Assembly: GCA_963727445.1 (NCBI GenBank)
Contig: CAVSGI010000009.1
Coordinates: 832,001 to 896,000, forward strand
Source: an uncultured delta proteobacterium
GTDB taxonomy: Bacteria; Myxococcota_A; Polyangia; Polyangiales; B10-G4
Direction: 5' to 3'
DNA length: 64,000 bases
The notes below the pieces were generated by a model. The model did not search any database and was not told the origin of the DNA. It saw only the letters and a list, made by a program, of their open reading frames with translations. The position numbers were made by a program, and so were the translations under genes. Of the stretch, positions 52,436 to 58,548 are shown in pieces (within the stretch, counting starts at the first letter, position 1; the number at the start of each line of letters is the position of its first letter).

Positions 52436-53894
52436 ATGAGCGGCGCGCTCTTCCCGAACGTCAGCCCCGATCGTCCGGCGCTCAGCGTCGAAGATCGGAC
52501 GCTGACGCACGGTGAGCTGGCGCGCGCTCTGTCGCGTCACTTCGAACGGCTCTCGTCGGCGGGAGTGTCGCCCGGTGACCGTGTCGCGGTCTGGACCGAG
52601 CGCACCCTCGAGACGCCGGTAGCCCTCCTCGGCAATGCCGCGGCGGGCATCGTGAGCGTCCCGCTCAACGCGTCCCTGGGCGAGCGCGAGCTCGCCCACA
52701 TCCTTCGTCACGCGAAGCCCAAGCTGGTGGTGGCCACCAGCCCCGCGAGCGCTTCGCGCACCCCCGATCATTCGGTGGTCGAGGCGACGGTCGACACCGC
52801 GGGCGAGCCTCGGCTCTCCGTGCGGGATGCCGACGACGCGCCTCTACTGATCCTCTACACCTCCGGCACCACCGGCCCGCCCAAGGGCGCCGTGCTCACG
52901 GCGAAGAACGCCGCCGCGAACATCGACGGCCTGGCCGCCGCCTGGGCCTGGACGCCACGAGACACCGTGGTGCACGCCCTGCCGCTCTTCCACGTCCACG
53001 GGCTGATCCTCGGGCTCTTCGGGAGCCGTCGCGTCGGGGGTCATCTCCACTGGGTGCCGCGCTTTTCGCCGGAGAGGGTCGCCGGGGCTCTCTCGGCAGG
53101 CGGGACGATGCTCTTCGCGGTTCCCACGATGTACCACCGACTGGTGGAAGCCGCGGAGGCCGACGCTTCGATCGCGTCGACGCTGGCGGGCGCGCGCCTG
53201 CTCATCAGCGGGTCGGCGGGTCTGCCCGTCCGCGAGCATCGGCGCATGGAGGCGATCACCGGCCGGAAGGTCATCGAGCGCTATGGCCTCACCGAAACCC
53301 TGATCAACACGGCCGTTCATCACGACGCGCCGAGGCCGGGCTACGTGGGCCCGCCGGTTCCGGGCGTCCAGCTCCGGCTCGTCGACGACGCGCGTCAGCC
53401 GATGGACGCGCGAGACGACGCGACCATCGGAGAGGTGGCGGTGCGCGGGCCGTCGGTCTTCGCGGGCTACCTCGACGACCCCGAGGCCACCGCCAAGGTG
53501 CGGGACGACGACGGCTGGTTCTACACCGGAGACCTCGCCACCATGACCGAGGACGGCGTCCTGCGCATCGTCGGGCGGCGCGCCACCGATTCTGATCAAG
53601 ACCGGCGGCTTCAAGGTCGGCGCTGGCGAGGTGGAGGCGGCGCTCCTCGAGGAGGTGGGGGTGGCCGAGGCAGCCGTCACCGGCGTGCCCGATGAGGATC
53701 TCGGGCAGCGCATCGTGGCGTACGTGGTGCCGCGCGACGCGGCCGCGCCTCCCGACGCCGACGCGCTGATCCGTGCCGTCGCCAATGCCCTCGCACCCCA
53801 CAAGCGTCCCCGGCAGATCCGCTTCGTCGAGGCGCTGCCGCGCAACGCGATGGGGAAGGTGCAGAAGAAGCGCCTCGGAGAGCTCGACCCTTGA
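52436..53894 (+). CDS. Acyl-CoA synthetase (MatB-like), frameshifted near 53590
   Basis: YTSGTTGPPKG, HALPLFHVHGL, ERYGLTE, TGD; continues DLIKTGGFKV..LPRNAMGKVQK in another frame. Confidence 0.9.
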
Positions 53895-54877
53895 AGTCCG
53901 AGGACGGCTATCGCCTCGATCCGCTGAGTGGGGAGTTCATCGCGGTGACCCCCGGACGGCGCAAGGCCTACAAGCCCCGCACCCGGCCTGCAGAGATGCC
54001 GCAGATCGCAGGCCGCTGTCCCTTCTGCCCCGGCCACGAGTCGGACACCGAGGAGACAATCGCCCAGACGCCCGCGTCGGGACCCTGGCAGGTGCGCGTG
54101 GTGAAGAACATCTATCCCCTCGCGAGTGAGGGCGCCGAGGTGGAGCCGGTGACGGGTGGCGTGCTCGAGGCGGCGCGCGGCATGCACGAAGTGGTGGTGG
54201 AGCACCGCGCGCACGACGTGGACATGCCCGACTACGACGACGCGCATCTGGCAGCGGTCCTTCGCACCTACCGAGACCGCGTCGCGGCGCTCTCGTCCAT
54301 GGAAGGCGTGGCGTCGGTGGCCGCTTTCCGCAACCGCGGCCGCCGCGCGGGCTCGTCCCAGCCGCACCCTCATGGCCAGGTGGTCGCCGTCCCGGTCGTC
54401 GCGCCGCGGCAGGCGAGGCGCCAGGCCCTCGCCCGTGCCCACCACGACGAGGCCGGCGAGTCGCTCCTCGACACGATGGTGAAGGCCGAGCTCCGCGCCG
54501 AGCTTCGCGTCATCGAAGAGCGTCGCGGCTTCGTGTCGTTCGTCCCCTTCGCGGCGCGCCAGAACCATCACCTGCGCATCGCGATGCTCGGCGCGCGAGG
54601 AGGCTTCGGCGGCGTCACGGACGACACCATCGCCGCCCTCGCCGAGGCTCTGGGGCGCGCCCTCGTCCGGGTGAGGGCGGCGACCGGCGACGCGCCCTAC
54701 AACATCCTCTTCGAGTCGCCGCCGGTGGGGGCGCAGAGCCACGCCGGCGCCTTCTGGTATGTGGACGTGCTGCCGCGGCGGGGCGGTCACGCCGGTTTCG
54801 AGCTGGGCTCGGGGATCGAGGTGGTGACGGTTCTACCCGAGCGTGCGGCCGAGGAGCTGCGCGCCGCGCCCTTCTGA
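53891..54877 (+). CDS. GalT-like nucleotidyltransferase (HIT superfamily)
   Basis: CPFCPGHE, HEVVVE, AGSSQPHPHGQ, AGFELGSG. Confidence 0.88.
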   Translation: MKSEDGYRLDPLSGEFIAVTPGRRKAYKPRTRPAEMPQIAGRCPFCPGHESDTEETIAQTPASGPWQVRVVKNIYPLASEGAEVEPVTGGVLEAARGMHEVVVEHRAHDVDMPDYDDAHLAAVLRTYRDRVAALSSMEGVASVAAFRNRGRRAGSSQPHPHGQVVAVPVVAPRQARRQALARAHHDEAGESLLDTMVKAELRAELRVIEERRGFVSFVPFAARQNHHLRIAMLGARGGFGGVTDDTIAALAEALGRALVRVRAATGDAPYNILFESPPVGAQSHAGAFWYVDVLPRRGGHAGFELGSGIEVVTVLPERAAEELRAAPF

Positions 54878-54890
54878 TATGCTCCTCGCC

Positions 54891-56192
54891 GTGAGGCGCT
54901 GCGCCCATCTCTCGATCGCTCTCGCTCTGCTCGCCACGTCGAGCGTCGCCTTCGCCCAGGCGGGCGGGCTCGGCGCGCCGCCGCCTCCGCCGGGCGGGAC
55001 GCCTCCAGCCGGGCAGCCGCAGGAGGGCGCCGAAGGCGGCGCCGCGGGGGAGGAGACCACGCCGGCCGCTGGAGGCGCGAGTGGCGAAGGGGAGGGGACG
55101 GGTGCCGAAGGCCAAGGCACGCCCGCCGAAGGCGAGGGCGAGGGCACGCCCGCCGCGGGTGAGGGCGAGGGAACGCCCGCCGAGGGCGAAACGCCCCCTG
55201 GCGACACGCAGCCCGTGAACCAGCTCCAGCTCATCGTCATCGACGCCGCGCCCTACGGCATCGATCCGGTGGTCGGTCGTCACGTCTCGGATCAGATGCG
55301 CGCGACCGGCGCGGCCATGGGCTACACGGTGGTGTCGCCGGAGGCGACGGTGCAGGCCGCCCAGAGCCTTCAGATGCCCTATCCACCGAGCCCGGCCGAT
55401 CTGTGGCGCGTCAGCTACGCGAGCCAGTCGCAGCGTGGCGCCTTCGCCCGGGTGTGGGCGCACGGGGGCGTCTACGTCATCGAGATCACCGTCGCCAGCC
55501 TCGACAACAGCGGCCCCTTCATCTCGCGCGGAAACGCGGGCGCGTCGGATCTGCACGCGGTGGTGGATCAACTGCTCCGCGAGGCGCTGCCACCGCCCGA
55601 CGCCTGGCAACCAGGCACGCCCACCGCCGGCGGGGCAACCAACTTCTCGCAGGGGATGACGCAGGCGCCGCAGGAGACCGAAGAAGAGCGCCTGGCCCGC
55701 GAGCAGGAAGAGGCCGAGCGGCGTGCGCGCGAAGAGGAGGATCGCCGTCGCACCGAAGAAGCCATGAAGTATCGCTGGCATCTGGTCCTACAGACCGAAG
55801 GGGCCATCGGGACCTCGCAGCAGGGCTTCTACAATCACCTGGTCGGCGCGCGCGTCGACTTCCGGGTCTCCCGCGCCATCCTCTTCGGCGTCTACTTCGC
55901 CTACGCCAACCTCGCAGGCAAGGGCGGCCGCGCCGACAACATCTACTTCTCGATCATGGCCGAGGATCGGATCCGGATCTCCTCTTCGAGCGACATCTCG
56001 ATCCCGCTCCGCGTTCACCTGGGCTATCTGCCCTTCAACGGGCCCGTGATCCGGCTCTCGGCGGGGATCAACATTCCGCTCTCGAGTCGCTTCGAGTTGG
56101 GCTTCGACCTGCTCGCTCCGACCTTCTGGATCCTTCCGGACCGCACGGCGGTGTCGCTCAACGTGGCGGCCGAGCTGATCCTACGGCTCTGA
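54891..56192 (+). CDS. Secreted protein with GEG-repeat linker and C-terminal beta-barrel-like domain
   Basis: Signal peptide AFA-Q, GEGEGTPA repeats, coiled coil, amphipathic beta C-terminus. Confidence 0.75.
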   Translation: MRRCAHLSIALALLATSSVAFAQAGGLGAPPPPPGGTPPAGQPQEGAEGGAAGEETTPAAGGASGEGEGTGAEGQGTPAEGEGEGTPAAGEGEGTPAEGETPPGDTQPVNQLQLIVIDAAPYGIDPVVGRHVSDQMRATGAAMGYTVVSPEATVQAAQSLQMPYPPSPADLWRVSYASQSQRGAFARVWAHGGVYVIEITVASLDNSGPFISRGNAGASDLHAVVDQLLREALPPPDAWQPGTPTAGGATNFSQGMTQAPQETEEERLAREQEEAERRAREEEDRRRTEEAMKYRWHLVLQTEGAIGTSQQGFYNHLVGARVDFRVSRAILFGVYFAYANLAGKGGRADNIYFSIMAEDRIRISSSSDISIPLRVHLGYLPFNGPVIRLSAGINIPLSSRFELGFDLLAPTFWILPDRTAVSLNVAAELILRL

Positions 56193-56199
56193 GCCGGGG

Positions 56200-58548
56200 T
56201 CAGTTGGCCGCTTCGAACTGGAAGGGATAGGCGACGCGCACCTCGCCGCCGCCCTCCGGAGCGGGGAAGGTCCAACGCCGCACCGCCGCGACCAAACACG
56301 ACTCCACGGATTCGTTTCCGAGAGTGGAGCCATCGACCGTGGCGCTGGTGACCGAGCCGCTCGCCCCGACCACGAAGGAGACGGTCACCCGGCCCGCGAG
56401 GTTCGGGCTCTGTGCCAGCGCCCGCTCGTAGCAGTAGCGCGCTTCGTTGATGTGCCGGCGAATCACGCGGCGAATGACCTCGGGGCTCAGAGAGCCCTGG
56501 ACCGCGCTCGAGCCGGTGCGAACGCGCGGGGTGGGCCGGTCGTCGCTGGGAGGCCGCATGGTCGGGGTGCCGCCGCTGGAGCCGATCCCGCCGAGGTCCG
56601 CGAGCCCGATGACGCCGCCGTTCCCGAGGAGCGCTTCGAGCGTTTCCTCCGCTTCCGCCACCGCGTCCGGGTTCCCCTGGAGCAGACCGAGCACGCCCGC
56701 CGCAGCATCCGCGGGCGGTAGCTCGCCCAGATAGAGCGCCGGGGTGAAGCCGCGCGCCTTCGCCAGGCCCACGAAGCGCGAGACGTCTGCTGCGCTCGCT
56801 CCCGGTGCGACGCGCAGGTAGGCGATGGGCTCCTGGGCGAAGTCGACGCGGCCGCCGAGGTCGTCTGGCGCGAGCCGAAGAGGAGCCCGCGACGAGGTGG
56901 GGCGTGGGGTGAGGGTGAGCTCTGTCGCTCCCGCTTCGATGGTGCCCCGATAGGACTCGGGATCGGCCGCCACGAATGCCATCGGCAACGACGATGGAAG
57001 CCGAACCTTCACCGACACGGGCTGCTCAATCATCGCGGCGACCAAGGGGAGCTGCGCTGCAACGGCAGCGCGGCCTTCGGGGGAGACGTCTCCCGGAAGC
57101 CCCGTCCACCAGATCGACTTCGCGCCGGCGGCTTCAGCGGATTCGATCACACGGCTGAGCGTGGCGTGGTCCGTGCGTCGATCGAACGCGAGGCTGAGGC
57201 TCGGCTCGGCCGAGGGGAGGGTCTCGGCGCCCTCTACTTGGCCGAGCATGCCGAGGAGGCCCGTCTGGGGAGGCGGCTCGTCGAGGTCTCCGCCCGCGGG
57301 GCTCACGAGCTGGTGCAGGCTCGCGGTGACCGCCTCCGCACCTGCACCGATGGGGACGGATGGCTGGCCCGCGAGGGGGACCAGGTTTCCTTCGAGCACC
57401 AGCGCATGCACGGCCGGTGGCGTCTCCATCCCGCCGTCGGCGCCGTCGAGCGGCACGGGCTCGAAGCTCGGGTGGTCGCGCCAGGGCGGGCGCGCGAGCT
57501 CGGCGAGACCTGCCGGCGCCGCGCGAACGATGTACTCGTCGAGGCCGACCACGAGCAGCACCACCAAAGCCGACACGACGCCGCCGATCACCATGCCGGC
57601 GCTCACCTTGCTGCGCGTCGCCGACAGGCCGACGAGGGCGAGCAGTGGCACCACGCCGAGGACGATCCCCCACCGCGCGACGGCCGTCGCGGGGGCGAGC
57701 TCTTCGGCCGCGGCGACGAGCACCTCCATGCGTGCGTCCGGAGAGACCATCGCCAACGCGCTGAAAACCTCCATCCGCGCGGCGGTCGCGGCGGCGGCGG
57801 CCGCGGCGACGAAGGCCAGGGAGCCCGCGGCGACCGCGCCGACGGCGAGCGCTGCGCTCCGGTGCTTCGGTGCGTCGCTGCCCACCGCAGCGCCCGCGAG
57901 GCCGGCGGCGATGGTGGCGCCGAGCGCGACGGCGATGGGGGTGCTCGCCGCCATCGGGCTCACGGTCATCAGCCATCCACCGGCCCCGAGGAAGGGAAGG
58001 GCGAGCAGCGCGATGCCCGCCCCCAAAAGAGAACGATCCGGCGCGCGCTGGCCGAGCGCGGCGATGGCGAGCCCGAGGCTCGTGCCGAGGAGCGTGCCGG
58101 AGGCGACGCCGGCGCCGTAGAGGAGCGCGCCACTCGACTCCGCATAGCCCTGCGCGATCATCGGGGCGCGCGAGCTGGGATCTGCGAAGCTCAGCGCCTG
58201 CTCGACCATGTACATGCCGTAGCGATGGCCCGCGAGCCCGATGAGCCATGGCAAGGCCGCCGCGAAGAGCGCGAGCGCCGTGGGTACCCGCCGGCCCGTG
58301 CCTGCGACGCCGATCAGCGCGCCCGCCACGATCCCCGCGAAGGGTGCGGCGAGCATGATGAGATAGAAGGCGATCCCCGTCTGCTCAGCGAAGGCGACCG
58401 CCTCGTCGGGCCCGCCAGCGCCCACCCAGGGCACGAGCAGGCAGCAGCCTGTCGAGAGCACCAGCGGCAGCGCGGCGGCGATCCCGGCGAGGGCCTTGCT
58501 CGGCTCTCTCGTGTCGGTCGGGACCTCCGGCGCCGGGTCGCGCGTCAT
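56200..58548 (-). CDS. Multi-TM protein with ExbB/TolQ-like, ExbD-like and C-terminal AgmX/PglI (TonB-like) regions
   Basis: C-terminal GSLSPEVIRRVIRRH..CYERAL..LAGRV..VESC..FPAPEGG..V.YPF; N-terminal similarities judged by eye. Confidence 0.8.
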   Translation of the reverse strand: MTRDPAPEVPTDTREPSKALAGIAAALPLVLSTGCCLLVPWVGAGGPDEAVAFAEQTGIAFYLIMLAAPFAGIVAGALIGVAGTGRRVPTALALFAAALPWLIGLAGHRYGMYMVEQALSFADPSSRAPMIAQGYAESSGALLYGAGVASGTLLGTSLGLAIAALGQRAPDRSLLGAGIALLALPFLGAGGWLMTVSPMAASTPIAVALGATIAAGLAGAAVGSDAPKHRSAALAVGAVAAGSLAFVAAAAAAATAARMEVFSALAMVSPDARMEVLVAAAEELAPATAVARWGIVLGVVPLLALVGLSATRSKVSAGMVIGGVVSALVVLLVVGLDEYIVRAAPAGLAELARPPWRDHPSFEPVPLDGADGGMETPPAVHALVLEGNLVPLAGQPSVPIGAGAEAVTASLHQLVSPAGGDLDEPPPQTGLLGMLGQVEGAETLPSAEPSLSLAFDRRTDHATLSRVIESAEAAGAKSIWWTGLPGDVSPEGRAAVAAQLPLVAAMIEQPVSVKVRLPSSLPMAFVAADPESYRGTIEAGATELTLTPRPTSSRAPLRLAPDDLGGRVDFAQEPIAYLRVAPGASAADVSRFVGLAKARGFTPALYLGELPPADAAAGVLGLLQGNPDAVAEAEETLEALLGNGGVIGLADLGGIGSSGGTPTMRPPSDDRPTPRVRTGSSAVQGSLSPEVIRRVIRRHINEARYCYERALAQSPNLAGRVTVSFVVGASGSVTSATVDGSTLGNESVESCLVAAVRRWTFPAPEGGGEVRVAYPFQFEAAN

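Follow-up and report, generated by a model that had tools for sequence, protein, structure and literature searches.

A single-chain assembly of ExbB-, ExbD- and TonB-like parts in a myxobacterial membrane protein family

In the Ton and Tol systems, an envelope motor is assembled from three separate parts, with the compositions ExbB5-ExbD2-TonB and TolQ5-TolR2-TolA. According to PMC12905483, the 5:2 ring is regarded as physiological, the idea that the five-subunit ring rotates around the two axle helices derives from MotAB by inference, residues Asp25 of ExbD and Thr148 and Thr181 of ExbB are essential, and the way in which these motors make force is unsettled. In the related AglR-AglQ-AglS motor of Myxococcus, which works with GltG/GltJ, AglQ and AglS form a heterodimer in a model, and modelling also has the tip of GltG binding GltD and GltF (PMC11761067). 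The subject of this report is a gene found on a 64,000-nucleotide stretch of DNA (positions 832,001 to 896,000 of contig CAVSGI010000009.1, assembly GCA_963727445.1, from an uncultured delta proteobacterium of the order Polyangiales; hereafter the window), located at 56200..58548 on the reverse strand and encoding a protein of 782 residues. By sequence and fold comparison, this protein unites recognisable pieces of all three Ton/Tol envelope motor parts in a single membrane chain. All of the parts are already known; the single-chain architecture is without a description found in the open literature, as covered by titles and the openings of abstracts and with subscription journals mostly outside, and the words "fusion" and "fused" do not occur in the accessible part of PMC12905483.

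Motor-derived units in one chain

The 782-residue open reading frame has zero internal stops, contains every motif quoted in the original prediction and has a G+C content that resembles that of the surrounding DNA. A homologue of 796 residues is colinear with it and 64% identical over the non-tip region, and an AlphaFold model based on an alignment of 63 chosen full-length members of the family reaches a pLDDT (predicted local distance difference test) of 89.1 and a predicted template modelling (pTM) score of 0.79. Hydropathy and the model describe nine membrane helices, two alpha/beta domains, a linker and a tip, while the basic residues in alternate loops suggest a topology with the N-terminus inside and the C-terminus outside. 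Direct searches of Pfam, NCBIfam and PDB sequences returned nothing for the non-tip part; in the protein itself, Pfam and NCBIfam recognise neither ExbB nor ExbD, but only the C-terminus. A Foldseek search with the whole model gave zero matches at E<=0.001, and the whole-model VIA-align search associated the membrane part with generic helical bundles and no ExbB, a result that excludes nothing. Matches to TrmH methyltransferases, which cover one strand-helix only, and a lipoprotein signal at C35/C36, which is not conserved, were dropped.

The ExbB-like nature of the membrane part emerges from profile comparisons, in which unit and domain profiles built from the family were searched against the 61,733 six-frame open reading frames of the genome, where the non-family matches rank behind its three family members. 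Unit 1 (residues 46-168; 58045..58413, on the reverse strand like all parts of the protein given below) consists of an amphipathic helix, the first transmembrane helix (TM1) and a hairpin, and its best non-family matches are two genuine PF01618 MotA/TolQ/ExbB proteins (E 3.8e-7 and 1.2e-5). Unit 2 (residues 200-312; 57613..57951) is a more diverged repeat whose best non-family match is one of the same two proteins (E 0.0024). When aligned by hhalign with 120 relatives of the nearest ExbB subfamily, unit 1 scores a probability (P) of 96.7 (E 4.5e-10) and unit 2 a P of 81.4 (E 1.2e-5), with reversed controls at E 0.37 and 0.82, and the two units match each other with a P of 94.6. The alignment of unit 1 includes the N-terminal helix and TM1 and deletes the cytoplasmic domain that lies between TM1 and TM2, in place of which the model has a short loop. 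The resemblance is selective: one myxobacterial ExbB subfamily gives unit 1 scores of 29-39 bits, and the remaining ExbB/TolQ proteins compared with it stay at 11 bits or below. We take this subfamily to be AglR-like, a label left unconfirmed by its 120 relatives, which are named generically as ExbB/TolQ or are nameless. Weak Pfam PF01618 matches appear in 1/63 and 3/71 family members, and the 782-residue protein itself has no match at the gathering threshold. Taken together, these comparisons support the assignment of both units as ExbB-like, as had been proposed from motifs.

Three further membrane helices accompany the two units. A leader helix, TM0 (residues 18-44; 58417..58497; hydropathy and model), precedes the ExbB-type amphipathic helix and, by analogy with the TonB anchor site given in PMC12905483, may occupy the place where the TonB/TolA anchor binds. 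The histidine of the SHLS anchor is absent from both TM0 and the last helix, and the family has no conserved His column. A connecting helix, TM4 (residues 172-195; 57964..58035; hydropathy and model), leads into unit 2. The last membrane helix with its continuation (residues 316-351; 57496..57603) is modelled as one continuous helix over residues 317-351, carries Asp337 and probably occupies the position of an ExbD-type axle, in a register that is ambiguous.

The periplasmic part begins with an ExbD/TolR-like domain 1 (residues 362-486; 57091..57465), which opens with a conserved F-x-P strand, gives a P of 93.1 (E 3.1e-7) in hhalign against a set of 12 ExbD/TolR proteins from the genome and is matched by TolR with a Z of 6.6 in the whole-model VIA-align search. 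For domain 2 (residues 507-609; 56722..57030), the sequence signal is weak, with an hhalign P of 3.4 (E 0.013) against ExbD and, as best non-family profile match, a TolR/ExbD protein at E 0.028. Folded alone (pLDDT 89), domain 2 finds Escherichia coli TolR (5by4) as its top match both in Foldseek (probability 0.91, TM-score 0.51/0.58, but E 0.12) and in VIA-align, the latter with a middling Z of 6.5, a root-mean-square deviation (rmsd) of 4.0 and 97 aligned residues over TolR 37-141, the next unrelated row being at Z 5.5. Because three methods agree on the family, domain 2 is regarded as ExbD/TolR-like despite the middling Z, and the two ExbD-like segments of the original prediction are thus borne out, one by profile and the other by fold. 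Pfam ExbD matches occur in 2/63 and 1/71 family members, and in one of the proteins a TolR domain is detected directly.

Beyond domain 2, a linker of about 70 residues (610-676; 56521..56721), partly helical, then Gly/Pro-rich and modelled with low confidence, compares with a family median of 48 residues (range 10-199, n=63) and with about 115 residues in E. coli TonB (PMC12905483). It leads to an AgmX/PglI (GltG/GltJ-type) TonB-like C-terminal domain (residues 687-779; 56212..56490), the tip, whose recognition in the original prediction was accurate: NF033768 matches it at 112 bits with a cut-off of 40, TonB_C (PF03544) at E 1e-6, and the TonB C-terminal domain by fold in VIA-align (Z 8.6, rmsd 2.2, 81 aligned). 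The best full-length model for the protein, GltG (NF033760), matches the tip only and, at 127.6 bits, does not pass its cut-off of 650.

With the Ton and Tol motors, the fusion protein shares the ExbB-type hairpin with its conserved Pro, Gly and Glu, the periplasmic fold of ExbD/TolR together with its linker strand, the fold of the TonB C-terminal domain and the inferred topology. It differs from them in being one chain that fixes two hairpins per axle helix, so that copies would give ratios of 2:1, 4:2 or 6:3 and not 5:2; in lacking a cytoplasmic domain, the SHLS anchor and the NxxPxxD-hydrophobic motif of the ExbD transmembrane helix; in carrying both ExbD-like domains in tandem and a short linker; and in having lost the Thr148 and Thr181 sites, the second of which is mostly Arg. 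On the features examined, its sequence places it outside the functional 5:2 motors. With the Agl-Glt motor it has in common two different ExbD-like domains and a tip that is closest to GltG/GltJ, whereas it has no FHA or zinc-finger/GYF cytoplasmic domains, stays below the GltG equivalog cut-off, is unlinked to agl/glt genes and is patchily distributed. AgmX/PglI proteins share with it a tip that passes the domain cut-off of NF033768, an annotation that covers only the last 93 residues and leaves the motor-derived body unannotated.

The proton site and the last helix

Since the hairpin aligns without gaps, the ExbB sites map to residues 108, 137 and 142 in unit 1 and to residues 254, 283 and 288 in unit 2, the middle position of each set being the hairpin Glu, presumably Glu176 of ExbB. 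At the threonine sites, the 782-residue protein has His108 and Leu142 (codon 58123..58125, equivalent to Thr181) in unit 1 and Ala254 and Thr288 in unit 2. Both sites are Thr in 7/7 canonical ExbB-family proteins of the genome, and in 119/120 and 120/120 close members of the nearest ExbB subfamily. Within the fusion family, Thr is found in 11/63 members at residue 108 (the Thr148 site, which is mixed), 2/94 at residue 142, 5/63 at residue 254 and 7/63 at residue 288, unit 2 having no conserved Thr. The channel threonines, whose absence had been noted from the one sequence, are therefore lost across the family.

At residue 142, Arg is present in 43/63 members, and in 58/94 in a larger alignment. 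Asp337 (57538-57540), part of a GLDE motif within the last helix, appears to be its partner. Among the 94 rows with both columns, Asp or Glu occupies position 337 in 51/58 rows with Arg142 and in 15/36 other rows; accordingly, 15/94 members have the acid but no Arg, and 21/94 have neither. The covariation of the two positions ranks 6 of 59,685 pairs (3-13 across pseudocounts), they are mutual best partners, and their association has a p of 6e-8 against 76 moderately conserved columns, the next best being at 0.009. A symmetric ring salt bridge, E137-R273, shows no coupling (rank >28,000), and the R127-E283 coupling ranks only 358-471. These observations suggest that an Arg-Asp pair may replace the Thr-Asp proton site, a contact to which covariation points.

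The original prediction had found no canonical ExbD transmembrane Asp, only the GLDE at the end of the last helix. The equivalence of this residue to the ExbD Asp is indeed ambiguous, but it is not incidental, being Asp in 47/63 members. In the hhalign alignment, the ExbD transmembrane helix falls on residues 316-336, and the position of Asp25 is taken by Gly/Ala; the 14 residues that follow Asp337 are not hydrophobic (KD 0.33 versus 2.95 in ExbD), and the last helix compared with the ExbD transmembrane helix alone gives no significant profile match (E 0.24). In 34/39 rows, the conserved Pro364 follows Asp337 at a distance of 27 residues, which is within the 22-29 found between Asp and linker Pro in ExbD. 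Counting of residues on the TM7-TM8 hairpin suggests that Asp337 may lie about one turn from the depth of Thr181.

Reach of the family and genomic setting

A family profile built on residues 15-606, with the tip left out, matches 18/301 genomes of the order and 6/401 of the phylum (E<=1e-8), each count including the source genome and one standalone mini-ExbB; against 1.84 billion representatives it finds 338 proteins at E<=0.001, of which 95 reach E<=1e-30. Architectures were counted over 151 proteins (the best 150 plus P0002). The full order of unit 1, unit 2, domain 1, domain 2 and AgmX tip is present in 59/151, the body without a tip in 28/151, two ExbB-like units with canonical TonB and no ExbD-like domains in 6/151, and a GspC-type PDZ ending in 2/151 (PDZ E 8e-35), while the remaining 56/151, among them a 964-residue member with two tips, are fragments or were detected in part. 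The tip is thus modular and exchangeable across the family. In the six TonB-tipped proteins (P0066, P0090, P0092, P0094, P0114 and P0115), the units are followed by one helix, a Pro-rich linker and the canonical TonB C-terminal domain; in P0055, P0065 and P0127, a third mini-ExbB unit is fused N-terminally and there is no tip. The family occurs mainly in myxobacteria, and its named hosts are mostly Polyangiales, the three named host loci belonging to a Polyangiales bacterium, a Sandaracinaceae bacterium and an uncultured deltaproteobacterium. One member is annotated at NCBI as an AgmX/PglI C-terminal domain protein.

Above cut-off, the source genome has seven genes of the ExbB family and 13 of the ExbD family, and it carries about 17 further AgmX-type tips. 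It also encodes two paralogues. In one (L001:5952-8486, reverse strand, G000:C10), the same body ends in a GspC-type PDZ that replaces the TonB-like tip, a hint of some connection with partners in type II secretion; the other (L002:6210-8003, forward strand, G000:C13) is shorter and has neither the two connecting helices nor a tip. Standalone mini-ExbBs were seen at G000:C17:5562-6026 (reverse strand), G000:C10:921880-922371 (forward strand), L016:1498-1905, L034:318-725 and L085:863-1252. These proteins of about 120-140 residues have no cytoplasmic domain and no ExbD neighbour and are mostly missed by Pfam and NCBIfam; in sequence they provide the closest link to unit 1 (46-57 bits), and they differ from the fusion protein in consisting of a single unit without axle helix or periplasmic domains. 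The nearest Atlas clusters, of 117-144 residues, are unnamed (<0.9), and one of them has PF01618 on 21% of its members (0.84, a lead only). Several motor genes of the genome look frameshifted, namely two of the ExbB family, ExbD-family and one GltG-like (G000:C9:715141-719110 and G000:C27:165399-166607), which suggests indel errors in the assembly.

In the window, the fusion gene starts 4 bases after a family 2 glycosyltransferase gene on the same strand. A convergent gene (54843-56192, forward strand), whose stop is 7 bases from that of the fusion gene, encodes a secreted-looking protein of 449 residues that has no NCBIfam match and no Pfam match over cut-off, is not conserved beside homologues and ends in alternating hydrophobic strands like those of an outer-membrane barrel. 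Farther away, an acyl-CoA synthetase-like gene (52436-53801, forward strand) seems to have its frame broken near 53690, possibly by a frameshift. Neighbourhoods were compared by BLAST and by eye, on crude gene calls, over 15 regions (12 from other genomes, two of paralogues and the window). No neighbour recurs in these regions except between close relatives, where chance or same-genus synteny may account for it, nor were transporter, exbBD or glt genes recognised as recurring beside the gene. Tandem copies of the fusion gene exist in three genomes.

A probable locked scaffold and its rivals

The original prediction offered a single-chain energy transducer or an uncoupled scaffold or decoy as alternatives. 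Of these, a scaffold fits better and a working transducer less well, because the threonine ring is gone, the Thr181 site is mostly an Arg that may face Asp337, the cytoplasmic domain is missing, ring and axle are covalently tied, the linker is short, and part of the family has another tip or none. On balance, we lean towards the fusion being a locked, proton-uncoupled inner-membrane scaffold that presents its tip to a periplasmic partner, a function that is predicted. In such a scaffold, the membrane bundle would serve as anchor, with the two hairpins cradling the last helix as the ExbB ring cradles ExbD. Arg142 and Asp337 would form a fixed ion pair where Thr181 and Asp25 normally pass protons, thereby closing the path; this pair must be dispensable, since the 782-residue protein itself has Leu142. 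The loop of about four residues between unit 2 and the last helix would forbid continuous rotation, which should also be prevented because ring and axle are covalently tied. The tandem ExbD-like domains would associate into an intrachain pseudo-dimer that acts as a pedestal, from which the AgmX tip would bind, by strand addition, a periplasmic envelope protein rather than a TonB-dependent transporter, in the manner modelled for GltG with GltD/GltF.

Several points weigh against a locked scaffold. The hairpin Glu is kept (E137 in 55/63 members, E283 in 39/63), and these acids, like the conserved Asp337, could still carry ions; the Asp-to-Pro spacing suggests that Asp337 may even be a retained Asp25. 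The Arg142-Asp337 coupling is not significant on 7-8 phylogenetically independent pairs, a comparison that is underpowered (median p 0.375). Some tipless members may have been cut by contig ends or frameshifts, and in L042 and L014 (G014:C1) the second of two tandem copies is spread across two reading frames, next to an intact one. Finally, it is not parsimonious to retain four domains of motor origin for a static role.

A first rival is a rewired, non-rotary energy transducer, which we consider distinctly less probable than the scaffold. Here, protonation of Asp337, helped by E137 and E283, would break and remake the pair with Arg142, so that the last helix would rock or piston and the pseudo-dimer and tip would move by a short stroke. 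The conservation of E137, E283, D337 and R142, the ExbD-like Asp-to-Pro spacing, the position of Asp337 possibly one turn from Thr181 depth and the retention of all three motor parts together in 59/151 proteins speak for it, and it has to contend with the members that carry neither Arg nor acid (21/94) or the acid without Arg (15/94), with the loss of the Thr sites and of the cavity-forming cytoplasmic domain, and with the six members without both ExbD-like domains and the 28 without a tip. Equally doubtful is the proposal that the family comprises miniaturised single-chain machines derived from Ton/Tol and driven by an ion gradient, with neither 5:2 ring nor rotation, through a predicted Arg-Asp switch at the former Thr-Asp site that would give the pseudo-dimer a short stroke; nor do we give better prospects to its corollary, that exchangeable tips (AgmX, TonB, GspC-PDZ) would aim the tethered ExbD pseudo-dimer at different envelope systems.

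A shade less probable again is a brake, decoy or adaptor that tunes gliding or envelope motors, either through hairpins that co-assemble with ordinary or mini ExbBs or through a pseudo-dimer that binds D-box-like motifs of GltG/TonB-type proteins. The selective resemblance of unit 1 to one myxobacterial ExbB subfamily, the closeness of the tip to GltG, the existence of mini-ExbBs, fused in front in three members, and the fact that two chains and one mini-ExbB make 5:2, which is arithmetic only, are consistent with this role, while motor genes are unlinked in all 15 regions, the range is patchy in order and phylum, unit 1 is far removed from the two mini-ExbBs of the genome (E 0.055 and 0.33) and the extra helices TM0 and TM4 may block entry into a ring. 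That the protein is a self-contained TonB substitute, energising outer-membrane TonB-dependent transporters in the canonical way, seems improbable: despite a TonB-like tip fold and six members with a canonical TonB C-terminus, those same six are without ExbD-like domains, the threonine ring is lost, the linker is short and no transporter gene was recognised as recurring nearby. An artefact of assembly or a chance fusion in decay, finally, can practically be dismissed. The assembly does hold frameshifted motor genes and, as regards the read support sought by the original prediction, public sequencing runs include no RNA holder and DNA runs of a small share only, none of which spans the gene; an artefact is nevertheless excluded by independent full-length homologues, rather than by reads, since intact, colinear proteins recur in many independent genomes and metagenomes with detectable ExbB and ExbD similarity, and the model is confident and compact.

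What emerges is a natural protein that ties ring units, axle and effector together, with the Thr-Asp site probably replaced, and that could not rotate as the ring-axle model requires. If the fusion conducts ions or does work, then rotation would not be required for this fold; if it does neither, a motor would have been repurposed as a static scaffold. In either case, an annotation is now supplied for a family that has so far been labelled by its last 93 residues only.

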